Below, piece by piece: positions 3,336 through 60,857 of a stretch of DNA of 63,367 nucleotides. The notes under the pieces were generated by a model. The model ran no database searches, was not told where the DNA came from, and worked only from the letters and a program-made list of their open reading frames with translations. The position numbers were made by a program, and so were the translations under genes. Source of the stretch: Polyangia bacterium (lineage in GTDB: Bacteria; Myxococcota_A; Polyangia; Fen-1088); assembly GCA_035648655.1 (NCBI GenBank), contig DASRLC010000143.1:1-63367 (forward strand). Reading direction: 5' to 3'. Position 1 is the stretch's first letter. The number at the start of each line of letters is the position of its first letter.

Positions 3336-4202
3336 TCAACTTCGCGCCTTGGAAAGCGAACTTTGGGTGACGTTCTCGTCACCGAGTGTCACGGAACCCT
3401 TGCGGGCGGGGGCGGCGCGAATTAGCCATAAGCTGACCCAGACGCCGGTGCTGAAGTAGAGCGACATCCAGGGCACTTCCTCGCGCCAGGGCTCCCAGGC
3501 GCGCGTCACGACGCGGCGGGACCCGACGTCGCGGACCCCCTCCGCGAAAGAAAGATACGGGCGCCGGCTCTGCTCGTCGGCCCGCCAGCGACGGAGGTAC
3601 ATCGGAACGTCGACCATCGACATGAACACGATATACGCGCCGATGAGGGCCGTCGCGATCCCCACGAAGCGCTGCCGCGCGCCGCGTTCGCGCGACAGCA
3701 GGCCAACGATCACCAGCACCGAAGCGAACGTCCAGATCGATTGCTCGATCGCGTTGCCGAGGAAATTCGTCGACACGACCGCGTACCAGGAGCAGATCTC
3801 GGCGACCGCGATGATTGGGACCAGGACCCGGGAAACGATCTTGGCGACGTCGCGCTGCCCGTCGCCGGCCGACTCACCGAGCAGCAACGCCCATTGGGTC
3901 ATGAACGCCAGCTCGGCGATCGTCGCCACCGCGCGTCCGACGAGCACGACCGAGAGCCAGTTGTCGTAGAGGCAGATGCGCTGCACGTCGGCCCGGGGAA
4001 AGATCGACCGGAAGGCGCACCCGCCCACGAACAGCGCCGAGAGAATCAGCTGACGACGGCGGTAGCGGCGGCGCTCGAGGCCCTGCAGCGCGCGATCCCG
4101 TTGCAGCGCCACCGCGACCCGCAACCAGATCGCCACGTTGACGGCGGCGACCACCCGCAGAAACCAGATCCAGCCGACGATCCCGAGCGACGCGTTGTCC
4201 AT
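3336..4202 (-). CDS. polytopic membrane protein, function unknown
   Basis: 288-aa ORF with about 6 hydrophobic segments and good third-position GC bias. No motif recognised. Confidence 0.55.
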   Translation of the reverse strand: MDNASLGIVGWIWFLRVVAAVNVAIWLRVAVALQRDRALQGLERRRYRRRQLILSALFVGGCAFRSIFPRADVQRICLYDNWLSVVLVGRAVATIAELAFMTQWALLLGESAGDGQRDVAKIVSRVLVPIIAVAEICSWYAVVSTNFLGNAIEQSIWTFASVLVIVGLLSRERGARQRFVGIATALIGAYIVFMSMVDVPMYLRRWRADEQSRRPYLSFAEGVRDVGSRRVVTRAWEPWREEVPWMSLYFSTGVWVSLWLIRAAPARKGSVTLGDENVTQSSLSKARS

Positions 4203-4250: not shown

Positions 4251-5315
4251 TTACGCAACAACCGCTCGCCGAGCGCCCAGTCGGTCGCGCGCGCCCAGCC
4301 AGTCAATCGCCAGCTCCTCCGCCCAGTAGCGCGGGCGCCAGGGCCAGCGCCCGGAGACGAACCCCGTGTGGCCGCCCCAGGGCGTGACCTGGAAGGTGAC
4401 CGCCGGCGACGCCACCGCCCGCGCGCGCGCCACCGCCTCGCGCGGAAAAAACGGATCGTCCTCGCTGCTGATGCAAAGGGTCGGCACGGCAATACGTCCG
4501 AGGTAACCGAGCGAGCTCGCGCGGCGGTAATAGTCCTCTGCGTTGGCGAATCCGTGCATCGGCGCCGTGACCCGCTCGTCGAACTCGGCGAAGGTCCGCG
4601 CTGCGCCGATGCGCGCAGCGTCGAGGTGCGCCGTTTCGAGCGGAAACCGTGTCAGCACGTCGAGCGCCTTCGGCTTGAGCCGCCGCAAGAAGTGATAGGT
4701 GTAGAGGCGCGCCCCGGGCCGTTCGAGGAATCGCGAGGCGGCCGCCAGATCGTACGGGACGGAGATGGTGGCGGCGGCGCGGATGGCGCTGGCGGCGCCC
4801 GACTCGCCCAGCCATTTGAGCAGCACGTTTCCACCCAGCGAAAACCCGACGGCGTAGATCGGCACATTGGGCTCGCGCGCCGCCAGAGTTCTCACCACGA
4901 AGTCGAGATCGCCCGTGTCACCCGAGTGATAGAGGCGAGGCTGTCGGTTTTTCAACCGGCGCGTCATCTGCAGCGGATCGCGCGCGCAGGAGCGGAAGTT
5001 GAGCACCGAGCACCGCCAGCCCACGCGCGCCGCCTGCACCGCCAGCCCCTGCGTGTGCAGCGAGTGCGCGCTTCCTTCGAGGCCGTGAAGCAGCAGCAGG
5101 CGCGACGAGCCCGCGGGGCCGACGGCATGGTCGAGGACCAGGTCGTCGTCGTCCGTGGTCGTCAGCACCTCGCGCGCAAACCGCACCAAACGCCGCGAGC
5201 GCGCCACCCGCGCCCACAGCGTCTGGCCGGTCGCTCCCCGCAGCCACCAGGCGACCGCCACCTCTCCGGATTCTGGCATCGCTCTCATATATGACGATCG
5301 GGAGTTTTGGCGCAC
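4251..5315 (-). CDS. alpha/beta-fold hydrolase (YheT/ABHD1-3-like)
   Basis: 'LLLLHGLEGS' and the nucleophile elbow 'GFSLGGN'. Start is uncertain (several Met in the first 13 aa). Confidence 0.8.
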   Translation of the reverse strand: MRQNSRSSYMRAMPESGEVAVAWWLRGATGQTLWARVARSRRLVRFAREVLTTTDDDDLVLDHAVGPAGSSRLLLLHGLEGSAHSLHTQGLAVQAARVGWRCSVLNFRSCARDPLQMTRRLKNRQPRLYHSGDTGDLDFVVRTLAAREPNVPIYAVGFSLGGNVLLKWLGESGAASAIRAAATISVPYDLAAASRFLERPGARLYTYHFLRRLKPKALDVLTRFPLETAHLDAARIGAARTFAEFDERVTAPMHGFANAEDYYRRASSLGYLGRIAVPTLCISSEDDPFFPREAVARARAVASPAVTFQVTPWGGHTGFVSGRWPWRPRYWAEELAIDWLGARDRLGARRAVVA

Positions 5316-5469: not shown

Positions 5470-7578
5470 GTGAAGCGATCTGTTTTTCGTTGGGGGTTCG
5501 TCGCGTCGCTGGCAACCGCCGGGCTGATCGGCGCCTGCGACGGCTCGGGCAAGGCGCCCGGTGGACCGGCAGCTGACGGCACCGGCTCCCTTCGGATCGC
5601 CCTGCAGCTCGCCAACGGCACCGCGGTGTCGAGCGCGAGCTACTCCATCACCGGCCCGGGCGGCTTTACTCTGGCGGGGAGCCTGGATGTCTCGAACAGC
5701 GCGACCATTTCGGCGGTAATCGGCGGCCTCCCGGCCGGCAGCGGCTACGCCATTGCAATCTCAGCCACCTCCACCGACGGGACGACCAACTGCGGCGGGT
5801 CGGCCAGCTTCAACGTGACCGCCGGGGTCACCAACGCGGTCGCCGTCCACCTCAGCTGTCACGAGGCACCCGCCACCGGGTCGATCTCGGTGAACGGCAC
5901 GATCAACGTGTGCCCGAATATCGAGTCGGTCAGCGCAAATCCGGCCGTGGGGAACGTCATCGCGATCGCGAGCGCCGCCGACGATCCGGACAGCGGCCCG
6001 CAGCCCATCTCCTACCAATGGACGACGACCTCCGGCACGTTGAGCAGCGCCAGCGCTCAGAACCCGACGCTGACCTGCGCGGCCCCCGGCGTCGCGTCGC
6101 TGACCCTCACCGTCTCCGACGGCGATCCGGGATGCAAGGCAACCTTTAACGTGCAGGTGACCTGCCCGGACGATTCGGCGCTCGCCGAGACGGCCTGGGT
6201 CGAGGTCGGGGCGAACAACCAGGCCATCGCCCGGCTCATCACCCCATACACGGTCTGCCCCACGATCTCCGTGGATGGTGTTTCGAGCCCCATGACGGTC
6301 CGGGCGCTGCCGGCCACCCTCCCCCTCCGGACGACCAGCACCGATACGACCTTGGCCGCGGCGATGACGTCGGGAAACTCGAAGCCGTCGGCCTTCACGA
6401 CGACGACCTGTGAGTTCCTCGTTCCCGCGGGGGCGATCGCGGCCACCGTGGCCGGCATCAATCTGCCGCTGCCGAAGCCGGCCGTCAACCGGGTGGTGAT
6501 CGTCGGCGACACCGGGTGCCGCATCTCGATTGGAAATGTCTACCAAGCCTGTGGCGATCCGACGCAGTGGCCCTTCTCCGTCATCGCGAAGGCGGCGGCC
6601 GCCATGCAGCCCGATCTCGTCCTGCACGTGGGAGACTACGAGTACCGCGACAATCCCTGTCCTCCGGGCAACACGGCCTGCGCCGGACAACCCTGGGGTT
6701 ACGGTTCCGACGCCTGGGCGGCGGACTTCTTCACACCGGCGGCACCCCTGCTGCGAGCGGCTCCCTGGGTGATGGTCCGCGGGAACCACGAGGTCTGCAA
6801 CCGCGCCGGTCAGGGCTGGTACCGGTACCTCGACCCGAACCCCTTCGACGGCACCGACGTCAAGACCTGCGACGATCCGGCGAACGACAACGCGGGAAAT
6901 TACAACGACCCGTGGGCGGTCTCCTTTGGCGACACACAGTTCATCGCGTTCGACTCGTCGAACGCCGCGAAGACCGCCTACTCGCCCCCCGCGTTTCAAC
7001 CCTACACGACCGAGCTGGCGGAGGCTGCCGGCCTGTCGAGCAACCCGAACCTTCTGAACATCTTCGCCGTCCACCACCCGGTTCTCGGTTACACGGCCGC
7101 CAACCCGCCCACGGTCGGCAACGCGGCTCTCCAATCGGTCATGAACGCCGCCTTCCCGGGCAACTATTACCCGCCCAACACCGCGATCGCCATCCACGGT
7201 CACGTGCACGACTTCCAGGCCCTCAGCTTCGGCAGCAACCACCCGGCGACCTTCGTGGCCGGGAACGGCGGCGACAACCTGGACTCGGCGCTCCCGGCGG
7301 TGTTCAACCCCAACGGCGACCTGCCGGCGCCGAACACGGTGGTCAACGCGTTTGCTTACTCGCAGGAATTCGGCTTCATGGTCATGGACCGCGTGGGCGC
7401 CGTGGGCGCAAAGAATTGGAAGTTCTGGTCCTATCGAACGGACGGTACGCTCATCGCCGTGTGCGACATGGCTCCCCCTGTCGCCTGCAGCGGCGTGTGC
7501 GACAGCACCCCGGGCAGCCAAATCACTTGCACCGACGGCAGCGGCAACGTCGTCGGTACCTACGACAACATCCCGTAG
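5470..7578 (+). CDS. secreted lipoprotein with Ig/PKD-like N-terminal region and calcineurin-like metallophosphoesterase domain
   Basis: GTG at 5470 gives 'VKRSVFRWGFVASLATAGLIGAC' (signal peptide plus lipobox). MPE motifs are 'VIVGDTGC', 'HVGDYEYRD', 'VRGNHE' and 'HGHVHDF'. The ORF-track start at 5155 lies inside the neighbouring gene. Confidence 0.75.
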   Translation: MKRSVFRWGFVASLATAGLIGACDGSGKAPGGPAADGTGSLRIALQLANGTAVSSASYSITGPGGFTLAGSLDVSNSATISAVIGGLPAGSGYAIAISATSTDGTTNCGGSASFNVTAGVTNAVAVHLSCHEAPATGSISVNGTINVCPNIESVSANPAVGNVIAIASAADDPDSGPQPISYQWTTTSGTLSSASAQNPTLTCAAPGVASLTLTVSDGDPGCKATFNVQVTCPDDSALAETAWVEVGANNQAIARLITPYTVCPTISVDGVSSPMTVRALPATLPLRTTSTDTTLAAAMTSGNSKPSAFTTTTCEFLVPAGAIAATVAGINLPLPKPAVNRVVIVGDTGCRISIGNVYQACGDPTQWPFSVIAKAAAAMQPDLVLHVGDYEYRDNPCPPGNTACAGQPWGYGSDAWAADFFTPAAPLLRAAPWVMVRGNHEVCNRAGQGWYRYLDPNPFDGTDVKTCDDPANDNAGNYNDPWAVSFGDTQFIAFDSSNAAKTAYSPPAFQPYTTELAEAAGLSSNPNLLNIFAVHHPVLGYTAANPPTVGNAALQSVMNAAFPGNYYPPNTAIAIHGHVHDFQALSFGSNHPATFVAGNGGDNLDSALPAVFNPNGDLPAPNTVVNAFAYSQEFGFMVMDRVGAVGAKNWKFWSYRTDGTLIAVCDMAPPVACSGVCDSTPGSQITCTDGSGNVVGTYDNIP

Positions 7579-8931: not shown

Positions 8932-10049
8932 GAAATCGGCCGCCCAAGAAGCCCATCGGCCGACGGCTCCGCGACCCCGCGGTCCTCTTGGCGGCCGCCA
9001 TCGGCCTCGCCGCGATCGCGCCCGAGCGCCCCGCCTTCGCCCATGCGGTCGGCGTCTCCAGCGGCGAATACCGCCTCGACGGCCAGGTGCTCTACGGCGA
9101 TATTGGCATGGCCGGTCGGGAGCTTGCCCGCTGGCTGCCGGAGATCGACACGGACCACGACGGGGCGATCGCCCCCGAGGAGCTGGCCGCGGGCCGCACG
9201 GCCGTGGCGCGCGCGCTGGTAGGGGGGCTGACCGTCGAGGCCGACGACAAGGCCTGCACCGGATCGCTCGACCGGGCGTGGGTACTGGAGGGTGAGGGCG
9301 GCGTCGTCTTCCAGGTCCGTTACAGCTGCCCCACGGTTCCCCGTCCCCTCACGCTCGGCATGCCGCTGCTCGACGCGCTGGCCCCGCGGCATCGCCACCT
9401 GGCGCGGGTGTTCCGCGCCGGCAAGGCCCAAACCAAGGTACTGGATCGCGCCCACGCCACCTGGACCCTCGACGACGCGCGCGGGACCTCGAGCGCGGCC
9501 GTGATGGCCTGGTCGATGCTGAAGCTCGGGATCGAGCATATCCTCACCGGCGCCGATCACCTGGCCTTCTTGGTAGGTCTCATCCTGGTGGGCGGCAGGC
9601 TCCGATCGCTGATCGGCGTGGTGAGCGCCTTCACGCTCGCGCATTCGATCACGCTGGCGCTCGCCGCGCTCTCGATCTTCGCGCCCAGCCCGCGCCTCGT
9701 CGAGCCCGCGATCGCGCTCTCGATCGCGTACGTCGGCGTCGAAAACCTCTTCGTCAAGGACACCCGCCACCGCTGGCGAATCAGCTTCGTGTTCGGCCTC
9801 ATCCACGGGTTCGGCTTCGCGGGCGCGCTGCGGGAGATCGGGCTGCCGCACGGACAGGTGCCGATCGCCCTCGTCTCGTTCAACCTGGGCGTCGAGATCG
9901 GGCAGCTCGGCGTCCTCTCGGTCGCTTTACCCCTCACGCTGGCCGCGCGCCGCGCCCCTTGGTTCGGAGACCGGGGAGTAAAGGCGCTGAGCTTGGCCAT
10001 CGCCATCGGTGGCGGCATGTTGTTTGTGGTTCGGCTCGTCGCCCGATAA
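8928..10049 (+). CDS. HupE/UreJ-like membrane protein with periplasmic N-terminal domain
   Basis: Signal peptide, an EF-hand-like 'DTDHDGAIAPEEL', then 'GADHLAFLVGL', 'FTLAHSITLA' and 'GLIHGFGFAGAL' TM motifs. ATGA overlap with the CCP stop. Confidence 0.7.
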   Translation: MRNRPPKKPIGRRLRDPAVLLAAAIGLAAIAPERPAFAHAVGVSSGEYRLDGQVLYGDIGMAGRELARWLPEIDTDHDGAIAPEELAAGRTAVARALVGGLTVEADDKACTGSLDRAWVLEGEGGVVFQVRYSCPTVPRPLTLGMPLLDALAPRHRHLARVFRAGKAQTKVLDRAHATWTLDDARGTSSAAVMAWSMLKLGIEHILTGADHLAFLVGLILVGGRLRSLIGVVSAFTLAHSITLALAALSIFAPSPRLVEPAIALSIAYVGVENLFVKDTRHRWRISFVFGLIHGFGFAGALREIGLPHGQVPIALVSFNLGVEIGQLGVLSVALPLTLAARRAPWFGDRGVKALSLAIAIGGGMLFVVRLVAR

Positions 10050-26920: not shown

Positions 26921-28130
26921 CGGAGCTACTTTTGGGGGGGGCGACCAGCGACGGAGACGACTGCACGACCGAGCGCGCGATCATCAGCTCCTCATCCGTG
27001 TGGATCACGCGAACGGTGACCCGACTCGACTCGGCGGAGATCGTGCCCGCGCTCTCCCTGTTGAGCGACCCGCTCAGCTCGACGCCCAGGAAGCCTAGCC
27101 CTTCGCAGATACGCGCCCGGACGGGCGGCGCATGTTCGCCGATGCCGCCCGCGAAGACGAGGGTGTCGAGTCCACCCAACGCCGCGGCGAAAGCGCCGGT
27201 CCATTTTTTGGCCTGATAACAAAACAGCCCGATGGCCTCCGCGGCTCGTACGTCGCCGGCTTCCCGTTGCAGCAGGTCCTGCATGTCGGAGCTGATCTCC
27301 GATACGCCGAGCAGACCCGATTCGTGGTTCACGAGACGCTGAAATCGCGCTGCGGTCATGTGCTCGGTGTGCTGTAGGTAGTAGACGAGGCCTGGATCCA
27401 GGTCTCCTGTTCTGGTACCCATGACCAATCCCGCGGCCGGCGTGAATCCCATGCTGGTGTCGATGCTCTTGCCATCACGCACCGCCGCCAGGCTCGCGCC
27501 GCTTCCGAGATGGGCCAAGATCACCCGACCGGTCGCTGCGGTCGGATCGCCGAGGCGCGCAAGCTCTTCCATCAGGAAGGCATACGAGAGCCCATGAAAT
27601 CCGTAGCGACGTATCCCCTGTGCTTGGTAGCGGCGCGGAATTGGCAACGTCCTGGCCACCTGGGGAAGATCGTGGTGAAACGCCGTATCGAAGCAGGCGA
27701 ACTGCGGCAGATCGGGAAACCGGCGATGCAGCGCCTCGACCAGCAGGATCTCCTCCGGCAGGTGCTCGGGGTCGAACGGACTGAGTCGGCGCAGCTCCTC
27801 GATCATCTCCGGGGTGATTCGCTGGGGCCGGCTGTATTTCGGGCCGCCATGGACCACCCGATGCCCCACAGCGGCCAAAGCGCTGCTGTGCTCGCCCAGC
27901 CAGTCCATCAGGACATTGGCGGCAGCGGCGTGATTCGCCGCCTCCACGGTCCGCGACACACTGTGCTGCGGGTTTACGTCCTCCACCTTCAGCGCGGCCT
28001 GGGGCAGCCCGATCCGCGAAATCTCGCCCTTCGCGAGCCGTCGCAGTGTGGCGCCCGCCTCGAACAGCGCGAACTTGATGCTCGACGAGCCCCCATTGAT
28101 CGCGAGAATCAAGGGGATGGCGGGCTTCAT
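26910..28130 (-). CDS. ackA: acetate kinase
   Basis: '[16 protein letters not shown]' at the N-terminus from Met 28130, and 'GFHGLSY'. Its stop overlaps the annotated copA start by 11 nt. Confidence 0.92.
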
Positions 28131-28765
28131 GCCGCCACCGTGTCGCCGCTCTGCAACCCAAGGGCCGTCAGTTGTGCACACGTGGACGAATAGTCCGTGT
28201 GATGAATGCTTCGAATCCCCAACCCCTGGGCGATTTCGACGAACATCGGGGTATTGTCTATGAAGACCACCTTTGGCGCCGGGGCCTGAGCGACATCCAG
28301 CGCCAACCGAAAGATCTCGGCGTCGGGCTTGCGGATCTGGACGAAACACGAGGAAATGAAGGCATCCACCAGCGCAGTCAATTTGAACCGCCGAATACGA
28401 TAGGCGTTCAGCTCCCGTGCTTCGTTGCTAACCACCACGATTTTCAGCCCGTATCGATCCTTGAGGCGCGCGACGAGCGCGATCATCTGCGGGTGAGGCT
28501 TCGATTGTGAATGCATGAACCGCCGAAATTGAGACCGAGTAAAATCTCGTTTCTGACAGAACACGACCAGGTCCAGATAGTCGTCGAGGGTGAGCTTTCC
28601 TTCCTCATAGGTCTCGAAGGTCATGTGGTGCCGCTCCTCCATCTCGGCACCGTCCAACTTGAAGGTCTTCGCGGCTCGTCTCCGAGCGTGACGATCCCAG
28701 CCATCGGTGAGCAGCACGCCACCGATATCGAGAAACAACGTCGTTACTGCCGGTGCCCGTCGCAT
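28127..28765 (-). CDS. HAD-superfamily hydrolase
   Basis: 'LFLDIGGVL' (DxG variant of motif I), 'VVSNE' and 'VFIDNTP'. ATGA overlap with the ackA start. Confidence 0.75.
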   Translation of the reverse strand: MRRAPAVTTLFLDIGGVLLTDGWDRHARRRAAKTFKLDGAEMEERHHMTFETYEEGKLTLDDYLDLVVFCQKRDFTRSQFRRFMHSQSKPHPQMIALVARLKDRYGLKIVVVSNEARELNAYRIRRFKLTALVDAFISSCFVQIRKPDAEIFRLALDVAQAPAPKVVFIDNTPMFVEIAQGLGIRSIHHTDYSSTCAQLTALGLQSGDTVAA

Positions 28766-37068: not shown

Positions 37069-37186
37069 ACTGTTCCCCCGTTCGTCGCCGCTCCGCGTCC
37101 GCACACCGTGGATCGCCTTCGTGACGTTGGGCGTTCATTGCGCTGTAGCCTCAACGCCCTCGCCCAACTGCACCGCAATCTCCCAG

Positions 37187-37335
37187 ACAATCTCCTGTCG
37201 CTGGCGCCCAGCAACTCTCCCTACAGATACGCACCTCCGAGCATTGGGGCCATTCGGGTCTCCCCCGTGTCGGTTGTAAGGGGTTCCGCGAGGGAGGGCA
37301 TTTTCTTCAAAGATTTCGATGTGCTCGACGTCACG
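37187..37335 (-). promoter_or_regulatory. conserved non-coding upstream element, copy 1 (upstream of the gnd array)
   Basis: The reverse complement matches 53241-53387. The first 35 nt are 34/35 identical (cgtgacgtcgagcacaYcgaaatctttgaagaaaa). Further blocks are cccttacaacc, ggggagaccc and gctcggaggtgcgYatctgtaggga (24/25). All frames carry stops, so it is not coding. Confidence 0.55.
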
Positions 37336-37528
37336 AAGGCTACCCAGATCGCCGGGGCCTGGTCTGATGGCTGTCTACGAGCGACGGGGATTGGCCGACC
37401 GACGCGTTCGTGTACCGCCTGCACCCGTCGGACCACACCCGGATACCGTTCGCGCACAGGGCGAAGCATGACGGCGCCGTGAACGACCTCGCCGATTCCA
37501 CGACCGGCGAGGCCTCGAATCGTCGGAT

Positions 37529-37786
37529 CTACTTTTTCTCGGGCTCGGCCGCGACGGTGCCGCCCTTGGCGGTGCACTTCTTCTCGGTCATCGACATCCA
37601 GCCCTTCCCCTTGCAGCTGTTCTTTCCCTTGCAGTCGTTGTCGGCGCCCTTACAACCGCTCTTGCCCTTGCACGCGTTCACGCCCGCGCAGTGAACCTTG
37701 GCATCCTTGGCGGACGCGACCAGCGGCGCCCCCATGGTGAAGAGTCCGGCCACCGCCGCTGCGACTAATGCTCCCTTGGTCGTCAT
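37529..37786 (-). CDS. small secreted six-Cys Lys/Gly-rich peptide, bufferin-like (BufA2 / 6-Cys type) candidate
   Basis: 85 aa. Sec signal 'ALVAAAVAGLFTMGAPLVASA', then 'VHCAGVNACKGKSGCKGADNDCKGKNSCKGKGWMSMTEKKCTAKGG' with spacing C-x5-C-x5-C-x6-C-x5-C-x12-C. Confidence 0.5.
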   Translation of the reverse strand: MTTKGALVAAAVAGLFTMGAPLVASAKDAKVHCAGVNACKGKSGCKGADNDCKGKNSCKGKGWMSMTEKKCTAKGGTVAAEPEKK

Positions 37787-51906: not shown

Positions 51907-53151
51907 TCAGCGTCGCGGAGCCATCCGGGACCGGGTTGGAAGATCGCGCGTCGAGGCCGGGGCGCGAGCGACCGAGGGCGGACTGCTCGGCACCCGGGCG
52001 TGGATCTCCATCTGCATGCTCGAGGGCGTCTCGCTCACGATCTCTATTCCAGCTGGGGCCGTCGTCACGATCCGATAGGTGTGGAGACCGGCGCTCGTCC
52101 CGGACAGGTCGACGAACGAGACCACGGAATCTGGCGGCAGCACCTCGAGCTCGCGCCGCGAGCTGCGCAGCTCGACGGCGACGCTGGTGTACCGAGGTGG
52201 GTCGAAGACCAGCCCGTCATTCACCCCTCGAATTTCGAGCGGCACGACGCGCGTCATTGCATGCGAGCGGTCGAGCGCCAGGGCGGCCCAAGCCGCGAGC
52301 ACACCGCCAAAAATCACCAGATGCGGCCACTGGCTGACAAGACGCACCCGCCTCTCGGCGGCACGTCGGGGCGCGGCGGACGGTCCTTCGGGGCGGGCCT
52401 TTGCCAGTATCTCTCGCAGGTGGCCCGGGTCCCGCATCAGCTTCATCGCGCTCCCCACCGCCAGATGAACCGTTCCGTGTTCCTCGCTCACGCAGATGAT
52501 CAGCGCATCGGTGGCCTGCGCCAACCCAACCGCGGCGCGATGCCGGGTGCCGAAGCTTGCGTCCTCGGTTTCGGTCGCCAGGGGCAACACCACCCCGGCT
52601 CGGGTCAGCCGATCGGCGGCGACGACGACGGCGCCGTCGTGTAAGGGGGACGCCGCCGTGAAGATGGCCTCGAGCATTTCGACCGAAAGCCGCGCATCGA
52701 CGAGAATGCCCTTGGTCGCGAGATCGAAAATGGAATCGTGGCACGGCAACACGATGAGGGCACCCTTTCGTCTGGCGGCCAACGCGAAGGCCGCCGCGAC
52801 GACAATTGTATCGGTGTCGTCGAGCGTCTCGCCGGCAGTCCGTCTCGTCAGCCAGCGCAGCGGGCTGACGCGGCTGAGCCCACGTCGAATCTCGTGTTGG
52901 AAGATCACCACGACGACGATGGTCGCGACCGCACTCACGGCGGACAGGAGGTACGACGTCAGAATGAGACCGAGGTGGCTGGCGATCCACGACACAGCCA
53001 ACAGGGTCAGAAGACCGCAGGCCACCTGAACCGCGATCGTGTGCTTGAGCCATCTGTAGGCCCACGAGAAAAGAGCCGTCAGAACCAATACGTCGACGGC
53101 GTCTTGCCAGCGAAGGCCGTGGGTCAAAACGGAGAGGGCGACTCGGTGCAT
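51907..53151 (-). CDS. cdaA: diadenylate cyclase CdaA fused to a YbbR (CdaR-type) domain
   Basis: Three N-terminal TM segments, DAC motifs 'PLHDGAVVV' and 'GTRHRAAVGL', a fourth TM 'HLVIFGGVLAAWAALAL', then 'VPLEIRGVNDGLVFDPP..VAVELRSSRRELEVLPPDSVVSFVDLSG..AGLHTYRI', typical of a YbbR repeat. Confidence 0.85.
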   Translation of the reverse strand: MHRVALSVLTHGLRWQDAVDVLVLTALFSWAYRWLKHTIAVQVACGLLTLLAVSWIASHLGLILTSYLLSAVSAVATIVVVVIFQHEIRRGLSRVSPLRWLTRRTAGETLDDTDTIVVAAAFALAARRKGALIVLPCHDSIFDLATKGILVDARLSVEMLEAIFTAASPLHDGAVVVAADRLTRAGVVLPLATETEDASFGTRHRAAVGLAQATDALIICVSEEHGTVHLAVGSAMKLMRDPGHLREILAKARPEGPSAAPRRAAERRVRLVSQWPHLVIFGGVLAAWAALALDRSHAMTRVVPLEIRGVNDGLVFDPPRYTSVAVELRSSRRELEVLPPDSVVSFVDLSGTSAGLHTYRIVTTAPAGIEIVSETPSSMQMEIHARVPSSPPSVARAPASTRDLPTRSRMAPRR

Positions 53152-53240
53152 GAGCGTTCTACAGCTAGCGTTAGCATGCCCGACTTCCCGCTCACACTCA
53201 GCGGACAGCTTCTCAGCCCGTGAGCTCTGCCGGCAGTCGC

Positions 53241-53387
53241 CGTGACGTCGAGCACACCGAAATCTTTGAAGAAAAAATCATTCCCTAGGGAATCCCTTAC
53301 AACCGGCGCGGGGAGACCCAGAGTGGTCCCAACGCTCGGAGGTGCGCATCTGTAGGGAACGTTTGCCGAGGCGACAGCGGAGACGGT
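53241..53387 (+). promoter_or_regulatory. conserved non-coding upstream element, copy 2 (upstream of the PRC/BON/HdeA array)
   Basis: Matches the reverse complement of 37187-37335 (see copy 1). Contains the CRP/FNR-like dyad cGTGA-N6-GCACa (53241-53256), the A/T-rich tttgaagaaaaaat, and a perfect 14-bp palindrome attccctagggaat (53280-53293). Confidence 0.55.
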
Positions 53388-53506
53388 CCCGCGATTTAAC
53401 CACTTTGCTGGACCCGTCGCGGCCACGAACGATCTCGTCGCTCGGCGCGACGCCTCGAGCGACGCAGCTATCACCCATTCCGAACCGCCCGAACGGAGGG
53501 ACTCCC

Positions 53507-54316
53507 ATGCTACGAAGTCTAAAGGATCTCGAACGATACAAGGTGACCGCCACCGACGGCGACGTGGGACACGTGGTGAATTTTCTCTTGGACGACGAGC
53601 GGTGGGTCGTTCGCTATCTGGTCGTCGAGACCGGGGGCTTCTTCAATCGGCCGCGGGTGCTCATCTCGCCAATCTTTTTCGGTCAGGTCGAATGGGCGAC
53701 CCACTGCTTCAGCTTGGCGTTGACGGTGGACAAGGTCAAGAACAGCCCGAGCCTCGACGTGGACATGCCGGTCTCGCGGCAGCATGAGCGAGACTATTAC
53801 GGCTACTACGGATATCCCTATTACTGGGGATATTTGGCGCCCTGGGGCATGGGTGCCTCCCCCGCCTTGCTCGCAGCCGGCCGGAGAAACGAAGAGCCTT
53901 CTCCGCACGTCGAAGAGACCAGCGGTGATGTTCACCTTCGGAGCGTCAAGGAAGTCCGCGGATACCACGTTCAGGGAGCCGACGAAGCGATCGGTCACAT
54001 TGACGACTTCATCGTCGACGATGAGACCTGGGAAATTCGCTACCTAGTCGTGGACACCAGCAATTGGTGGTTCGGCAAGCGGGTGCTGGTTTCGCCACAC
54101 TGGGCGAGCCGCGTGAGTTGGTCGGAGCGCAAGGTCCACCTCGACCTGTCGCGACAAGCGATCAAGGACAGTCCTGAATGGAATGCAACCGTCGGCGTCA
54201 ATCGGGAGTACGAGACACGTCTGTATGACTACTACGGACGGCCGGCGTACTGGTCGCCCAGCGATCGACCTTCAAGTGCCGAGGGACGAGACGCTTCGGC
54301 ACACCACCATGGGTAG
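53507..54316 (+). CDS. tandem PRC-barrel domain protein
   Basis: ATG at 53507 follows GGAGGG. 'LKDLERYKVTATDGDVGHVVNFLLDDERWVVRYLVVETG' is repeated as 'VRGYHVQGADEAIGHIDDFIVDDETWEIRYLVVDTS'. Confidence 0.8.
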   Translation: MLRSLKDLERYKVTATDGDVGHVVNFLLDDERWVVRYLVVETGGFFNRPRVLISPIFFGQVEWATHCFSLALTVDKVKNSPSLDVDMPVSRQHERDYYGYYGYPYYWGYLAPWGMGASPALLAAGRRNEEPSPHVEETSGDVHLRSVKEVRGYHVQGADEAIGHIDDFIVDDETWEIRYLVVDTSNWWFGKRVLVSPHWASRVSWSERKVHLDLSRQAIKDSPEWNATVGVNREYETRLYDYYGRPAYWSPSDRPSSAEGRDASAHHHG

Positions 54317-54374
54317 CGGACCACTTCGTGGAGCGTCCACGGCAGGCAAACAACGGCGGAAAGCGAGATAGGCG

Positions 54375-54632
54375 ATGATTCATTCGTGGTGGTTATTGTG
54401 GATGGTAATGATGCTCATTTTTGTCATTTCGCCGATTGGGTACGGCTGGGGTTACCGGGGCTGGGGTCCACCGTACCCGAGATATATCCAGAGACGCCGA
54501 GGCCTACGCGCCGTCACAGCCGGCGCTTCCACGGGCTTCGACCACCACGCCTGGGGGCGCGGCGGTGACCTGGTCTGGATGGTCTTCGCCATCGGAATGA
54601 TCTGGGTGGTCGCGGCTATGTGGTGGCGCTAG
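54375..54632 (+). CDS. small 2-TM membrane protein
   Basis: 85 aa with Trp-rich hydrophobic ends 'WWLLWMVMMLIFVISPIGYGW' and 'LVWMVFAIGMIWVVAAMWW'. No family recognised. Confidence 0.45.
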   Translation: MIHSWWLLWMVMMLIFVISPIGYGWGYRGWGPPYPRYIQRRRGLRAVTAGASTGFDHHAWGRGGDLVWMVFAIGMIWVVAAMWWR

Positions 54633-54656
54633 TTGAACCACGTCAAGGGACGACGA

Positions 54657-56231
54657 ATGACATCGTCACGGCTCACGCGACGCCCACGGGTTACGGTCCA
54701 TTGCAGATGGCTCCGCCTCATCCTCGTCTCCTCGGGCGCTCAACTCTGCATCGCGTCGGTGTCACACGCCGCCACCAAGACGCCGACCATAACGGATCGG
54801 GGTCTCACCTCTGCGGTTGAATCGAGTCTACGATACGACAAGGGGGTATCGCCCGTTGGCGTAGACGTCGATACCAGTCAGGGCATCGTCACGCTGTCGG
54901 GGACGGTTCACGACCTCCTCGCCAAGGAACGCGCCCTCAGGATTGCCGAGAGCATTCGAGGGGTGCTGGGGGTAATTGACCGCACGGTCGTCACGCCGGT
55001 GTCCCGCTCCGACGAGGACATCCGCAAGACCATCCTTTGGTCCCTGCTGGAGGATCCAGCGACGAAGGCCTACCAGATTGGCGTTTCGGTGAAGGGCGCC
55101 GTAGCGACGTTGACAGGTACGGTTGGGTCGTATGCAGAGCGGCAGCTCGCCGAACGGCTCGCCAAGGGTGTCAAGGGCGCCAAGGACGTGCGCAATGACA
55201 TCACGATCAGCTACTTCCAGAAACGCACCGACGCGGAAATCGCCTCCGACGTAAAGGCCCGCTTTCAGTGGGATATCTGGCTCAACGGCGATGCGCTCAC
55301 CGCCGCGGTGAAGGACGGCAAGGTGACCGTGAGCGGTACGATCGGCAGCGCGATCGGCAAAGAACGGGCGGCCGATGACGCCTGGGTCAGCGGCGTGATG
55401 TCGGTCGACGACACGGCCCTCAAGGTTGAACCACGTACGGGCCACGACGCACGCCACCAATTGAAGTACGTGGTCAAATCGGACGCCGATATCAAGCTGG
55501 CGATACAGGCTGCGTTTCGCCTCGACCCTCGGGTGGCGGCCTTCGCCCCCGACGTGACGGTCGAAGGCGGCGGAGTCATTCTGGGCGGCTCGATAGGAAA
55601 CCTGAAGGCGAAGGCCGCGGCCGAACAGGACGCCCACAATATCGTGGGCGTCTGGCGGGTCGACAACCTGCTGACCGTCCGTTCGAAAGGCTCGTTCGTC
55701 GATTCGGACCTGGAGAAGCAGCTAAAGACGGCTGTGGCGTGGGATCCCGTCCTGGACCGCTCGACGATCGATATCGCCGTCATCAATCGCGTCGCCTACC
55801 TCTCGGGAGAGGTTGATTCACGTTTCGAAAGTGTCGAAGCCGAGGATGTCGCGTCGCGAATAGACGGCGTGCTCTTGGTCCGCAACCATCTGAAGGTCGA
55901 GCCGGCCGATGTGTTCATCTACGACGACCTACCTTTCTTTTCGTACTTCGACTGGCCCTACTACCACCGGTCGTCCTCCGACATGTACCAAGCTCGGGAG
56001 CCGGAGCCATACCTGAGCGACGCGCGGATCAAAAAGGATATCGAGGACGCGTTTTTCTGGAGTCCGTTCGTGGATCGCGGCGCCATCACGGTGGCGGTCC
56101 ATGGAGGTGTTGCGACTTTGACAGGAACCGTCGGCAATTGGATCGGCTGGAGAGAGGCCGACAAGGACGCACGCAAGAACGCCGGGGACGTCCTCAATCG
56201 ACTGACCATCAAGCCGGGTGCCTGGTGGTGA
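54657..56231 (+). CDS. secreted protein with six BON (OsmY-type) domains
   Basis: Six repeats of the pattern 'D..I...V......D......I.V.V..G.VTLSG.V.......A.......GV..V.N.L.V'. Signal-like N-terminus. Start is 54633 or 54657. Confidence 0.85.
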   Translation: MTSSRLTRRPRVTVHCRWLRLILVSSGAQLCIASVSHAATKTPTITDRGLTSAVESSLRYDKGVSPVGVDVDTSQGIVTLSGTVHDLLAKERALRIAESIRGVLGVIDRTVVTPVSRSDEDIRKTILWSLLEDPATKAYQIGVSVKGAVATLTGTVGSYAERQLAERLAKGVKGAKDVRNDITISYFQKRTDAEIASDVKARFQWDIWLNGDALTAAVKDGKVTVSGTIGSAIGKERAADDAWVSGVMSVDDTALKVEPRTGHDARHQLKYVVKSDADIKLAIQAAFRLDPRVAAFAPDVTVEGGGVILGGSIGNLKAKAAAEQDAHNIVGVWRVDNLLTVRSKGSFVDSDLEKQLKTAVAWDPVLDRSTIDIAVINRVAYLSGEVDSRFESVEAEDVASRIDGVLLVRNHLKVEPADVFIYDDLPFFSYFDWPYYHRSSSDMYQAREPEPYLSDARIKKDIEDAFFWSPFVDRGAITVAVHGGVATLTGTVGNWIGWREADKDARKNAGDVLNRLTIKPGAWW

Positions 56232-56296
56232 TGACGGTCGACGCCGGTTGATGCAAGCCCATCGATTAGCGACCCCGTGACATTCAAGGAGACATC

Positions 56297-56662
56297 ATGA
56301 CCAAGCTAACTCTACTGACAATTGGGATATCCGTCGCCCTCGCGGGCTCGACTCTGGCGGCGGCGCCCGCACCCACCGGCAGCGCCGACAAGACCGCCAA
56401 GACGGACAAGACCGCCAAAACGGCCAAGGGGCCCAACCCGATCAAGATGACCTGTGAGGATTTCCTCACATTGGAGGACGTTGCGAAGCCGAAAGTCGTC
56501 TACTGGGCCGAAGGATTTGACCGCAAGGGCAAAGCAGACGACGCCACGGTCGACGTCGAAACGACCGACCGTCTCGTGCCCGTGATCGTCGAAGTCTGCC
56601 AGAAGGAGCCGAAGGCCTCGTTCTGGAAAAAGATGAAGGCCGAGTTCAAGAAGGTCTTCTGA
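56297..56662 (+). CDS. HdeA/HdeB-family periplasmic acid-stress chaperone-like protein
   Basis: Signal peptide, then 'MTCEDFLTLEDVAKPKVVYWAEGF..KGKADDATVDVE....LVPVIVEVCQKEPKASFWKKMKAEFKK'. This aligns with E. coli HdeA 'WTCEDFLAVDESFQPTAVGFAEAL..KDKPEDAVLDVQ....VTPAIVQACTQDKQANFKDKVKGEWDK', including both Cys. Confidence 0.72.
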   Translation: MTKLTLLTIGISVALAGSTLAAAPAPTGSADKTAKTDKTAKTAKGPNPIKMTCEDFLTLEDVAKPKVVYWAEGFDRKGKADDATVDVETTDRLVPVIVEVCQKEPKASFWKKMKAEFKKVF

Positions 56663-56711
56663 TCGTCGAAACAATCCATCCGCTGACGCATTTACCAGGA
56701 AGAAGGCGACC

Positions 56712-56933
56712 ATGTCGAACCACAATTCCCATTCGGCCCATCACCACGTCCGTCCGGACGAGCCGGTGGTGACTCCCGTTCAACCGTCGAGCAAGCATTC
56801 CGCGTCGTCCGAAAGCATCGCTGCGCGAGCCTACGAGAAGTTCGTTGCCCGCGGGCGGACGCACGGCGGCGATCGAGAGGATTGGGCGGAGGCAGAGCGG
56901 GAGTTGACCCGCGGCGAGGCAGGGAAGGCTTAG
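56712..56933 (+). CDS. DUF2934-family small protein
   Basis: 'IAARAYEKFVARGRTHGGDREDWAEAEREL' matches the DUF2934 core. Confidence 0.65.
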   Translation: MSNHNSHSAHHHVRPDEPVVTPVQPSSKHSASSESIAARAYEKFVARGRTHGGDREDWAEAERELTRGEAGKA

Positions 56934-57012
56934 GAAGCGGGCGAATCCATTCCAAAGTGACGGCTATGGGGAAGACTACCGGCGTGGGTGGAGAGATGGG
57001 CCGCGACAATCG

Positions 57013-59469
57013 GTGGAGCCCTGTCCCGAAGCGAACGGACATTCGGTGACCTTCCCCCCTCGTCTCGCACCCGGCGGACCGGGAGGTCGGGCGCGTTGGA
57101 CCTCCAGCGCCAAGAGTGGCGTTGGTACGGCGCTCAGCAACAAGAGTCGCGTCTGGTTCACCTTGAGCCACGGGATCCTCAACGAGATCTATTATCCCCG
57201 CATAGACCAGGCCTGTATCCGCGACATGGGGCTCATCGTCACGGACGGAGCCACCTTCTTCTCGGAGGAAAAGCGCGATGCCGACTCTCGCGTTCGCTGG
57301 CTGGCCGATGGTGTTCCAGCGTTTCACCTGACCAATACCGCCCGCGATGGCCGCTACAAACTCGACAAAGAAATCGTAGCCGATCGGGATCGCGACACGG
57401 TCTTGCAAAGGACCCGCTTTCTGCCGCTGCGGGGCGCTCTCTCCAGCTACCACCTTTACGTGTTGCTCGCGCCGCACCTCGGAAACCAGGGAGGCGGCAA
57501 CAGCGCCTGGGTGGACGACTTCGAAGGGACGCCCTTTCTATTCGCACGACGGAACGGTAGTGCGCTCGCCTTGGCGTGCTCCGCCGTATGGACTAAGCGA
57601 TCGGTCGGCTATGTGGGATCGTCGGACGGCTGGCAGGATCTGAAGGCGCACAAGAAGATGACCTGGGAATATTCCCACGCCGAGAACGGCAACGTGGCGC
57701 TGGTCGGTGAGATCGACCTGATCGCGTCGCAAGGAGAGTTCGTCTTGGCGTTGGGGTTCGGCAGCCAACCGGAGGAGGCGGCTCGAAACGCCGTCACGAG
57801 CCTGCGGGGCGGCTTTGACGGAGCGAAAGAAGGGTTTCTCGCCGGGTGGCAGGACTGGGCCGCGGCCCTCGCGCAGCCGAAGAAGGGCTCCACCACACCG
57901 AATGGCCTGTCGCAGAAGAGCCTGGCTGTTCTGCGGTCACATGAATCCAAAATGGCGCCGGGCGGGCTCATCGCCAGCCTTTCCATACCTTGGGGCTTCA
58001 GCAAAGGTGACAACGACCTCGGTGGCTACCATCTGGTCTGGTCGCGGGACATGGTGGAGACGGCAGGCGGCTTGTTGGCCGCCGGTGCGCACGACGAGGT
58101 ACGTCGCGTCCTGGCCTATTTGCGCGGAACCCAGCAAACCGATGGCCACTGGTCGCAAAACATGTGGCTGGATGGCTCGCCGTATTGGAACGGCATTCAG
58201 ATGGACGAGACGGCGTTGCCCATCCTCCTCGTGGACTTGGCCTTTCGCCAAAAGGCACTGACGAAGGCCGAGGTGGTTCAGCTATGGACCATGGTGCGGC
58301 GCGCAGCCGGTTACCTAGTGCGTAACGGCCCGGTCAGCCCGCAGGATCGCTGGGAAGAAGATCCCGGCTATTCGCCGTTTACCGTCGCAGCGCAAATCGC
58401 CGCGCTCCTGGCGGCGGCGGATCTGGCTGATTTGAGCAATGAGGCTGCCCTCGGCAGCTACCTCCGCGAGACAGCCGACGTCTGGCACTCATCCATCGAC
58501 CGCTGGATGTACGCTTCGGAGACGGATTGGTGCCGGCGGTACGACGTCAAGGGCTACTACGTCCGAATCGCACCCAAACAGACGGGCGGAGCCGACGCGC
58601 GCTTCGAGAGCGGCGTCCGGATCAAGAACGTCGCGGCCTCCGAGGACACCCTGGCCGCCATCCATCTGGTGAGCCCCGACGCCCTGGCGCTGGTGCGCTT
58701 CGGCCTCCGCGCCGCGGACGATCCGCGGATGCGCGACACGACGAAGGTCATCGACGCGTTGCTCAAAATCGAGACGCCGACCGGACCGACGTGGCATCGA
58801 TATAACGGCGATGGCTACGGCGAGCACGAGGACGGGACGCCGTTCGACGGAACCGGGATTGGTCGGGGCTGGCCCCTGCTGACCGGCGAGCGGGCCCATT
58901 ACGAGCTGGCGCGGGGACAGGTGGACAGCGCGAAGGCTCTCTTGGCGACGATGGAATCCTTCGCCAACGAGGGCGGCCTGATCTCGGAGCAGGTATGGGA
59001 CTCGCCAGACATCGCGGCCCACGAGCTCCACCTCGGCCGGCCATCGGGTTCGGCCATGCCGCTCGTGTGGGCGCACGCCGAGCACCTCAAGCTGCGACGC
59101 TCGCTGGAAGACGAGCGCCTCTTCGACTTGCCGCCACAGACAGTCCGGCGGTACCTGACCGACCACACCGAGTCCCCCCGTATGATCTGGCGCTTCAACC
59201 ACAAGATCCGATCGATGCCGCCGGGAAAGCTGTTGCGCATCGAAACGCTGGCGCCGGCCGTCGTTCACTGGAGCGCCGACGACTGGCGTACCGTCCAGGA
59301 CGCGACGACCCACGATGCCGGCTTGGGGATTCATTTCGCCGATCTTACGACCAGAGCGCTTCCTGAAGGACAACGCGTTTTCTTTACGTTCTACTGGCCG
59401 CACGGCGATCACTGGGAAGGTACGAACTTCACGGTCGCGGTCGGGTCCCTTGGCGTCGCCTCCATCTGA
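57013..59469 (+). CDS. GH15 glucoamylase / glucodextranase-type glycoside hydrolase
   Basis: N-domain 'VWFTLSHGILNEIYYPRIDQA' and catalytic (alpha/alpha)6 region with 'HLVWSRD' and 'DRWEEDPGYSPFT' (the WEE general-acid context). Confidence 0.85.
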   Translation: MEPCPEANGHSVTFPPRLAPGGPGGRARWTSSAKSGVGTALSNKSRVWFTLSHGILNEIYYPRIDQACIRDMGLIVTDGATFFSEEKRDADSRVRWLADGVPAFHLTNTARDGRYKLDKEIVADRDRDTVLQRTRFLPLRGALSSYHLYVLLAPHLGNQGGGNSAWVDDFEGTPFLFARRNGSALALACSAVWTKRSVGYVGSSDGWQDLKAHKKMTWEYSHAENGNVALVGEIDLIASQGEFVLALGFGSQPEEAARNAVTSLRGGFDGAKEGFLAGWQDWAAALAQPKKGSTTPNGLSQKSLAVLRSHESKMAPGGLIASLSIPWGFSKGDNDLGGYHLVWSRDMVETAGGLLAAGAHDEVRRVLAYLRGTQQTDGHWSQNMWLDGSPYWNGIQMDETALPILLVDLAFRQKALTKAEVVQLWTMVRRAAGYLVRNGPVSPQDRWEEDPGYSPFTVAAQIAALLAAADLADLSNEAALGSYLRETADVWHSSIDRWMYASETDWCRRYDVKGYYVRIAPKQTGGADARFESGVRIKNVAASEDTLAAIHLVSPDALALVRFGLRAADDPRMRDTTKVIDALLKIETPTGPTWHRYNGDGYGEHEDGTPFDGTGIGRGWPLLTGERAHYELARGQVDSAKALLATMESFANEGGLISEQVWDSPDIAAHELHLGRPSGSAMPLVWAHAEHLKLRRSLEDERLFDLPPQTVRRYLTDHTESPRMIWRFNHKIRSMPPGKLLRIETLAPAVVHWSADDWRTVQDATTHDAGLGIHFADLTTRALPEGQRVFFTFYWPHGDHWEGTNFTVAVGSLGVASI

Positions 59470-59483
59470 CGCGGGCACGACGG

Positions 59484-60857
59484 ATGGCACCTAAAGCCGG
59501 GTCGCAGGTAACCGGGTTCGTATATGTCGCGGTCGGCGTCGCGGCTATCGGCGGCCTGCTCTTTGGCTATGATACCGGCGTCATTTCCGGGGCGATACTG
59601 TTCATTACGCGCCAGTTTTCCCTGTCGGCGACAATGGAAGAGGTCGTCGTTAGCTCCGTTCTGGTTGGCGCTGTCATTGGAGCCGTCATCGGCGGTGTCT
59701 TGACCGACCGCTTTGGGCGCCGCACGATGATAATCGTAGCTGGCATCATCTTTACCGGGAGCGCAATCGGCACGGCGCTGGTACCGTCGGTGACCTGGTT
59801 GATTGCGGCCAGGATGGTAAGCGGCGTCGGCATTGGCATCGCGTCGTTCATTTCTCCCATGTACATCGCCGAGCTGGTCCCAGCAAAGGTTCGCGGTGCC
59901 CTGGTGGCGGTCAACATGTTGGCGATCACCACTGGCATCGTGGTCGCCTACCTGGTGGACTATGCGTTGTCTGGCATCCAGGGATGGCGATACATGTTTG
60001 CTTTCGCGGCCATACCGTCAGCCGGCCTGGTCATCGGAATGTGGCGGCTGCCTGACAGCCCACGCTGGCTGATAAGCAAGGCGAAGATCGACGAAGCGCG
60101 AAAGGTATTGCAGCGCGTTCGGACCGCCTCAGACGTGGGGCCAGAAATCGCAGACATCCAGCAAAGCATGAAAAAGCAACGCCAAGGCGGGATGGCCGAG
60201 CTCTTTGCCCCATCCATCAGGATGCCTTTGATCGTCGGCCTGGGGCTGGCCGTCTTTCAGCAGATAACGGGCATCAACACCGTCATCTACTATGCTCCGA
60301 CCATTTTCAAGTTCGTGGGCATCAGCGGTACGGGTCCAGCGATCCTGGCCGGCGCCGCGCTGACCATAGTGATGTGGTTATTTCATATATTGGCCATCTT
60401 CTTGCTGGATCGCGTCGGCCGACGTCCGCTATTGTTAGTCGGCGTCGCCGGGCAAATCGTCGGCCTGGGGATCCTGGGGGCCTCTTTCGAGCTCCAGCAG
60501 TTGGCGAGTATAAAGAGCTATCTGGCGCTGGGCGGCCTGGGTATCTACGTAGCGTGTTTCGCCTTTGGGCTGGGGCCGATCTTCTGGCTGCTGATTTCCG
60601 AGATTTATCCGCTCGAGGTCCGCAGCGCGGCGATGAGCGCGGTGACGGTTACCAACTGGGGAATGAACCTGGCCGTCGCCGTGACATTCTTGACTCTGGT
60701 CGGCGTTCTGGGGCGCGCGGGGACCTTTTGGTTGTACGGAGTAATCGCCGTCGGAGCCTGGATCTTTTTCTACCTGCGGGTGCCGGAGACGAAGGGCAAA
60801 ACCCTCGAACAGATTGAAGAGCACTGGCGAGGGGGAAAGCCCGCACGGGCATTGTAG
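59484..60857 (+). CDS. MFS sugar porter (sugar:H+ symporter)
   Basis: 'GYDTGVISGA', 'DRFGRR', 'PDSPRWL' and 'PETKGKTLEQIE'. 14 nt after the GH15 stop. Confidence 0.9.
   Translation: MAPKAGSQVTGFVYVAVGVAAIGGLLFGYDTGVISGAILFITRQFSLSATMEEVVVSSVLVGAVIGAVIGGVLTDRFGRRTMIIVAGIIFTGSAIGTALVPSVTWLIAARMVSGVGIGIASFISPMYIAELVPAKVRGALVAVNMLAITTGIVVAYLVDYALSGIQGWRYMFAFAAIPSAGLVIGMWRLPDSPRWLISKAKIDEARKVLQRVRTASDVGPEIADIQQSMKKQRQGGMAELFAPSIRMPLIVGLGLAVFQQITGINTVIYYAPTIFKFVGISGTGPAILAGAALTIVMWLFHILAIFLLDRVGRRPLLLVGVAGQIVGLGILGASFELQQLASIKSYLALGGLGIYVACFAFGLGPIFWLLISEIYPLEVRSAAMSAVTVTNWGMNLAVAVTFLTLVGVLGRAGTFWLYGVIAVGAWIFFYLRVPETKGKTLEQIEEHWRGGKPARAL

Follow-up and report, generated by a model that had tools for sequence, protein, structure and literature searches.

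The window studied here, a stretch of 63,367 nucleotides from an uncultured Polyangia bacterium (65% G+C), carries two copies of a non-coding element of about 150 nt, one in front of a gnd-to-ppk2 operon (copy A) and one in front of a PRC-barrel operon (copy B). We lean, with modest confidence, towards the view that the element is a lineage-specific operator-promoter-leader cassette, acting at the DNA level, that was copied and co-regulates both operons. A copied control region carrying a palindrome for a regulator is the most likely explanation of our data. The element is of known kinds (operator/promoter cassettes, regulatory rewiring) and does not represent a new class.

In the model that we propose, a piece of about 150 nt from the upstream region of the PRC operon would have been copied and fused in front of gnd, replacing the gnd operon's own upstream region. 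A 16-bp palindrome with the geometry of CRP/FNR sites would be bound by a dimeric regulator, and the A/T-rich stretch that follows it would probably be the core promoter, with GAAAAT as a -10-like hexamer and a weak -35 overlapped by the palindrome. The cassette would continue with a transcribed leader of about 100 nt, whose three conserved blocks can form a long imperfect hairpin. One regulator on identical operators would switch the two operons together: envelope and acid-stress genes (PRC, BON, HdeA, glucoamylase and sugar uptake) at one locus, and a glycogen-to-acetate/polyphosphate energy module, from gnd to ppk2, at the other.

A duplicated element at the start of two operons

A previous sequence-only reading of this DNA had reported that the reverse complement of positions 37187-37335 aligns with 53241-53387. 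We read both loci, aligned them and found the same match, with 83.7% identity over 141 nt (blastn, E = 2.7e-32). Block 1 (CGTGACGTCGAGCACAYCGAAATCTTTGAAGAAAA) is present at exactly two places in the window, 37301-37335 (minus strand) and 53241-53275 (plus strand), and so does the 25-mer GCTCGGAGGTGCGYATCTGTAGGGA, at 37218-37242 (minus) and 53334-53358 (plus), with zero occurrences expected from shuffles in each case; the short blocks CCCTTACAACC and GGGGAGACCC are found in both copies. The match between A and B is beyond chance. Both copies point at the start of their operon, as had been claimed, and the distances from the first base of block 1 to the ATG were likewise confirmed: 267 nt for gnd (37335 to 37068) and 266 nt for the PRC-barrel gene (53241 to 53507). 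The similarity exceeds the extent first given, running from about 10 nt 5' of block 1 to ~37195 in A and ~53394 in B. We therefore place copy A at 37195-37344 on the minus strand, from about 10 nt before block 1 to a rearrangement junction, and copy B at 53232-53394 on the plus strand, divergent from cdaA. A search of the 63-kb window with an HMM of the element returned no third copy.

Read towards gnd, copy A starts with the palindrome CGTGACGTCGAGCACA, which has the CRP-type geometry CGTGA-N6-GCACA (37320-37335). The A/T-rich half of block 1, TCGAAATCTTTGAAGAAAA, comes next (37301-37319), and its end together with the T at 37300 spells GAAAAT. It is followed by a pyrimidine-rich, fast-evolving spacer (37283-37300; 5-10 mismatches in 18 columns between versions), by a block that the alignment of the versions shows to be invariant (CCCTTACAACCG, 37271-37282), and by the conserved 3' block GCTCGGAGGTGCGTATCTGTAGGGA (37218-37242), predicted to pair with the spacer and the CCCTTACA block. 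A small hairpin, GCTGG-GCG-CCAGC (37200-37212), closes the conserved part; copy A and the version in the related contig L093 keep it intact, whereas in B it is degraded. All these features lie on the minus strand. Their counterparts in copy B, on the plus strand, are the palindrome CGTGACGTCGAGCACA in the same geometry (53241-53256), the A/T-rich half as read from the sequence (53257-53275), an exact match to CCCTTACAACCG (53294-53305) and the 3' block in the form GCTCGGAGGTGCGCATCTGTAGGGA, recovered by an exact-pattern search (53334-53358). The 12-mer CCCTTACAACCG has a third exact copy at 37647-37658 (plus), antisense inside a bufferin ORF about 300 nt from A. This one is probably a coincidence: it encodes a G-C-K-G repeat, and ~0.008 occurrences are expected by chance.

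A third version (C) comes from a related lineage. Contigs with an identical PRC protein also have an identical copy B. Among five PRC homologues at 81-86% identity, the element is confined to the closest one, P0001 (contigs L093 and L094), where it spans 4725-4890 and lies 266 nt ahead of the start codon of the orthologous PRC-BON operon. There it is preceded by genes for a response regulator, a histidine kinase and a GGDEF protein. The syntenic slot just 5' of the element is occupied by a CdaA c-di-AMP synthase gene in the window (51907-53151, minus) and by a GGDEF diguanylate cyclase gene in L093 (3803-4627, plus). Version C lies about 45 nt past a terminator-like hairpin flanked by an A-tract and a U-tract (sequence and fold), which suggests that transcription restarts at or after the element.

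The element had been described as non-coding, and the three versions bear this out. Single-base indels fall within the conserved part, and none of the three block 1 substitutions is synonymous in the FFKDFDVLDVT frame, the only open antisense frame (by-eye translation of the alignment); together these rule out coding. The element does not keep an open frame with indels in multiples of three. We also considered a leader peptide starting at the GTG inside GGAGGTG and rejected it, as this start lacks both conservation and a spaced ribosome-binding site, and its frame differs between the copies. The same GTG is in frame with the PRC gene and gives rise to a spurious 324-aa ORF (53342-54316, plus); PRC homologues all start at the equivalent of ATG 53507, which has its own ribosome-binding site. 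No tRNA or tmRNA was found.

The operon behind copy A (16813-37068, minus) was delimited from Pfam assignments and from a gene order that is the same in L177, with no real gaps. It begins with gnd, a transaldolase-PGI (tal-pgi) fusion of 952 aa, pgm, glgP (glycogen phosphorylase) and a 212-aa ORF (28127-28765) that is assigned by position only, its slot holding a HAD hydrolase gene in L177. The later genes are ackA, an HMBD P-type ATPase, phosphoketolase, class-I fba, tpi, a cation ATPase and ppk2. This 20-kb array thus unites glycogen breakdown, the pentose-phosphate pathway, phosphoketolase, acetate kinase, two P-type ATPases and PPK2, and has the appearance of an autonomous module that generates ATP from glycogen and polyphosphate stores. 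The operon behind copy B (53507-60857, plus; Pfam and called genes) encodes the PRC-barrel protein, an 85-aa membrane mini-ORF, one protein with six BON domains, an HdeA-like protein, a DUF2934 protein, a GH15 glucoamylase and an MFS sugar transporter, and the gene 5' of this copy is the divergent cdaA. Upstream of copy A, on the same strand, are genes for a glycogen debranching enzyme and a small BufA2-type bufferin precursor, the latter followed by a 12-bp GC hairpin that lacks a U-tract; gnd may also be transcribed by read-through from these genes. The bufferin ORF (37529-37786, minus) encodes an 85-aa Cys-rich secreted product that matches the family of BufA2 bufferin-type copper metallophore precursors (NCBIfam NF050166, 88 bits, cutoff 60). 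It stands alone between the debranching enzyme gene and copy A, and no gene resembling one for a modification enzyme was found among the scanned ORFs of the window.

The palindrome of block 1 and the search for a promoter

The first half of block 1 is a 16-bp imperfect inverted repeat with a 4+8+4 layout, CGTG-N8-CAC(A/G), and reads CGTGA-CGTCGA-GCACA in A, B and C. Outside the two copies, no site of this geometry is present in the window's intergenic DNA (4.6 kb). Across 1.24 Mb of related loci, CGTGAYGTCGMGCAC without a mismatch is limited to six upstream regions: the three with versions A, B and C, and those of L008, L177 and L178. In these last three loci the motif is inverted (as CGTGAYGTCGCGCACG) and lies about 90-230 nt before the start codon of a small ORF or of PRC. 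Compared with shuffles, the reversed local similarity gave p = 0.003-0.007 for L178, p = 0.013-0.06 for L008 and a weak p = 0.04-0.14 for L177. A further locus, L011, has a block-1-like stretch beside the ribosome-binding site, with a palindrome one base shorter. The motif therefore recurs in six upstream regions, three of them in the inverted orientation. Conservation that is independent of orientation and position is, to judge from these regions, the behaviour of a transcription-factor site and not that of a core promoter or an RNA motif. We infer that the palindrome is bound by a regulator.

The E. coli CRP operator is TGTGA-N6-TCACA, and classical CRP activation occurs from sites at -41.5, -61.5 or similar positions. 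The palindrome of the element has the same CRP/FNR geometry, and 8 of its 10 half-site bases are as in CRP; with GAAAAT as the -10 element, its centre would fall near -34.5, which is not among the classical positions. Its layout also resembles the Myxococcus xanthus MrpC motif, TGTYN8RAC (PMC4320627). As with CRP/FNR operators, it stands 5' of stress/dormancy-type operons, here in a myxobacterium, and occurs in relatives in either orientation and at variable distance. It differs from CRP and MrpC sites in its outer bases, which are C instead of T with G at the right half-site. No CRP-family gene (cNMP-binding or HTH_Crp) was found among the Pfam-scanned ORFs of the window. We also looked at the adjacent CopR/CusR-like two-component system as a dedicated regulator; this is unlikely, since its response regulator is ~90% conserved in lineages without the element, and the system is probably unrelated.

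The sequence-only reading had proposed a shared promoter/operator and/or structured leader. A shared cis-regulatory element, with selected blocks and a palindrome of CRP geometry, stands, whereas no promoter could be recognised. A consensus scan for sigma-70 promoters (-35/-10 with 16-18 nt spacing), run together with a terminator scan, returned none in the A region, the B region or L093. By eye, the three versions have a single -10-like hexamer in common, a weak GAAAAT or AAAAAT where block 1 ends; that it is the -10 element we can only infer. An RpoH-type reading of CTTTGAAG as a -35 (CTTGAA) was rejected, as the C-rich stretch is only 10-11 nt away.

Sigma-54 promoters (GG-N10-GC; TGGCAC-N5-TTGC) were scored with a PWM built from 30 sites in relatives. 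The best scores in the A, B and C leaders were at most 1.0 bit, against 16.9-31.8 bits for real sites, and the best site anywhere in the window reached 10.4 bits, against at least 16.9. A sigma-54 reading of GGTGCGYATCTGTA with TGGYCCCAAYGCT has the wrong spacing and a PWM score of about 0. Among the upstream regions of PRC homologues, in contrast, 42 of 154 match the sigma-54 pattern TGGCACCAATCGTGCA, 36 of them 40-90 nt before the ATG. These loci fall within L013-L176 (e.g., L024 at ~1715 and L106 at ~4934) and come from Polyangia, Holophagae and other MAGs; TTTGCA/TGCAAA repeats are seen further 5' of the pattern. The PRC-barrel stress gene family is thus predicted to be widely sigma-54-dependent. 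The PRC promoters of Polyangia and Holophagae resemble the element's context in the downstream gene family, in a similar stress/glycogen gene set and in a long upstream regulatory region. They differ in having TGGCACCAATCGTGCA about 70 nt before the ATG, a site that the window lacks, which points to a switch of promoter type in this lineage.

The second half of the element as a possible RNA

The conservation of about 100 nt past block 1 exceeds what an operator and a promoter need. One explanation is a structured cis-regulatory RNA in the 5' leader, extending from CCCTTACAACCG to GGTGCGYATCTGTAGGGA, with block 1 as its promoter; it might be a riboswitch, a protein-binding leader or an mRNA-stabilising hairpin. 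We regard this as rather doubtful, although those 100 nt do call for an explanation and all three versions face their downstream gene the same way. RNAalifold folds the second half into an imperfect, rod-like hairpin of 25 pairs, in which the spacer and the CCCTTACAACCG block pair with the GGAGGTGCGYATCTGTAGGGA block. Of the alignment cells in the hairpin 96% are paired, compared with 29-47% in slid controls, a weak comparison because the structure was derived from the same sequences. Two of the 25 pairs show compensatory changes from A-U to G-C, and by eye the outermost basal pair covaries as well (CUCCCU/AGGGAG in A, UUCCCU/AGGGAA in B and C). However, 61 of 500 shuffles reach the same covariation measures, the alignment consists of only three sequences, and three of the nine varying pairs hold a non-pairing cell. 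The folding z-scores are only -1.4, -1.6 and -0.3. Rfam gave no match at gathering thresholds over the whole window, and at E <= 10 it returned chance-level matches, none of them on the element in the sense orientation. Finally, a search of 1.2 Mb of related loci with a covariance model of the second half brought up no version beyond the three already known.

Known 5'-UTR stem-loops, such as the ompA leader, and riboswitch leaders share some of these features. The element keeps its orientation in a presumed leader and can form a long imperfect hairpin, the apical part of which varies with some compensatory changes. It differs from them in belonging to no Rfam family, in showing no significant stability or covariation and in being confined to two lineages.

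A bolder form of the RNA explanation would make the ~100-nt second half a previously undescribed regulatory RNA that senses a stress signal or a cyclic dinucleotide and was co-opted together with the promoter to wire the two operons. The genes immediately 5', a c-di-AMP synthase gene in the window or a GGDEF gene in L093, are in line with this, and the regulated genes would be those for ion pumps, BON/PRC envelope proteins and glycogen catabolism. We consider it distinctly unlikely.

Origin, conservation and distribution of the copies

The DNA between copy A and gnd reveals how this copy arose. In L177 and L178, gnd is 93-94% identical to that of the window and is preceded by an intact Trp/Gly-rich mini-ORF of 88 aa. 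The 120 nt that separate copy A from the gnd start codon consist of the last ~50 nt of this mini-ORF and the native 5' region of gnd; they are identical to L178 at 105 of 120 positions, also match L177, and show no match to the mini-ORF of the B locus. The 3' part of the intact ORF in either contig aligns with the relic (37144-37194, minus), from which the stop codon has been lost. The relic is fused to copy A and lies outside the duplicated element, with the rearrangement junction at ~37195. The native gnd 5' region, including its ribosome-binding site, follows at 37069-37143 (minus) and is homologous to L177 and L178. With a relic and a native gnd leader on its 3' side, copy A is an insertion or a replacement, and these alignments identify it as a ~150-nt piece of a PRC-type upstream region that took the place of the native gnd leader and of most of the mini-ORF. 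The junction and the foreign 120 nt also account for two details of the sequence-only reading. The last ~120 nt, described as not obviously alignable, indeed give no alignment between A and B, the cause being the mini-ORF relic and native gnd leader in A. The nearly equal distances of 266 and 267 nt, in turn, carry no meaning: they are a coincidence, since the last 120 nt of A lie past the junction and have another origin.

The mini-ORF encodes a Trp/Gly-rich membrane protein of 85-88 aa (...GYGWGYRGWGPPYPRYIQRRRG...) that adjoins PRC and/or gnd in the loci examined and has no Pfam or NCBIfam family. It comes in two paralogous types, of which the window has one intact (54375-54632, plus) and the other as a 3' relic only (~37144-37194, minus); the intact ORFs of L177 and L178 are at 9645-9911 and 513-779, respectively.

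That copy A was demonstrably made by a rearrangement, and that on the 3' side the A/B similarity stops at the junction, would also suit a neutral leftover of a recent segmental duplication, whose similarity reflects recency instead of function. We find this very unlikely given how the differences are distributed. Over 139 aligned columns, A and B differ by 28 mismatches and 2 gaps, A and C by 18 mismatches and 1 gap, and B and C by 17 mismatches and 3 gaps, and this divergence is strongly non-uniform within the 150 nt. Across version pairs, block 1 has 1-3 mismatches in 35 columns (3-9%), whereas the adjacent spacer has 5-10 in 18 (28-55%); for A versus B, the contrast is significant (Fisher p = 2e-5). 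The same blocks are kept in the orthologue of the other lineage, where the element is 85% identical between B and C versus 64% for the rest of the leader (128 columns; p = 7e-5). Such clustering shows that purifying selection acts on the conserved blocks in both genomic contexts.

We attach even less weight to the idea of a stand-alone small RNA gene, with its promoter in block 1 and a product of ~110 nt ending at the GCUGGGCGCCAGC hairpin, that lies upstream of both operons by chance or acts in trans. Conservation does stop just past the small GC hairpin in A and C, but this hairpin lacks a U-tract and has decayed in B, conservation in A stops on the 3' side at the rearrangement junction, and both genomic positions are operon leaders.

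Retrieval of related loci was protein-anchored on PRC and covered 80 metagenome loci, 80 genome loci and 12 contigs; it yielded one extra lineage with the element. PRC loci at 43-80% identity (80 from metagenomes, 80 from GTDB species) lack it, as do the gnd-anchored loci, and overall it is absent from ~170-178 related PRC/gnd loci (1.24 Mb) apart from the orthologous site. A scan with the second-half pattern gave no match in GTDB species representatives, and neither element pattern matched in IMG/VR. The element is thus young, lineage-restricted and not a dispersed repeat; its reach appears to be two lineages. The three known versions, coming from those two lineages, do not allow a regulon to be defined from them. 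The sequence-only reading would have been contradicted by a high-copy repeat scattered without positional preference; instead, the 63-kb window has just two copies, each at the 5' end of an operon, and the 1.24 Mb of related loci add a single one, at the orthologous site. A mobile miniature repeat (MITE or REP-type) is accordingly the least likely explanation, one to which we give almost no credence: nothing beyond the existence of two copies favours it, both have the same orientation, and no obvious terminal inverted repeats or target duplications were seen (by eye and in an inverted-repeat search).

A by-eye likeness of the second half (AATCCC ... GGTGC) to L011, L097, L108, L177, L178 and L008 was discarded: when the 288 nt ahead of each start codon were tested against shuffles, every locus except L011 had p > 0.05. 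The match in L011 (p = 0.007-0.33) is to block 1 beside the ribosome-binding site, the second-half-like stretch lying outside the tested window. PRC loci without the element share another upstream motif of ~80 nt (GATTGTTCCTTGTCTTC ... CCCAYGATGGAGGGGCA ... AGGGATGGTAGG), present in L005 (~3780-3870), L011 (~5770-5860), L095 (~4740-4830) and L096 (~4395-4480) and adjoining Band_7 genes or their remnants in some loci. In the closest GTDB relatives, with PRC 76-80% identical, a conserved stretch GCGTTGYTATATCGAWRRCGCAT lies 5' of PRC (L097 ~4945-4960, L108 ~4845-4860); in L097 it includes the near-perfect palindrome GCTATATCGATAGC and may represent another operator type for the PRC gene.

Considering all the above results, a copied control region with a palindrome for a regulator resembles the recruitment of operons by promoter/operator duplication, in which an upstream block is copied to a second operon, displaces its own leader and is kept by selection. 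In most described recruitments of this kind the sequence is carried by a mobile element. Here, by contrast, we saw no hallmarks of a mobile element, and the junction falls within the decayed remains of a small ORF.

The two loci would thus offer a natural example of regulatory rewiring in an uncultured peat/fen lineage of Polyangia. Its PRC-barrel operon would have a palindrome cassette in place of the sigma-54 promoter common in related lineages, and this cassette would then have been copied, capturing a 20-kb operon for glycogen, pentose-phosphate, phosphoketolase, acetate-kinase and PPK2 functions. With the palindrome as a concrete motif, it may become possible to define what is probably a dormancy or energy-limitation regulon in organisms that still resist cultivation.
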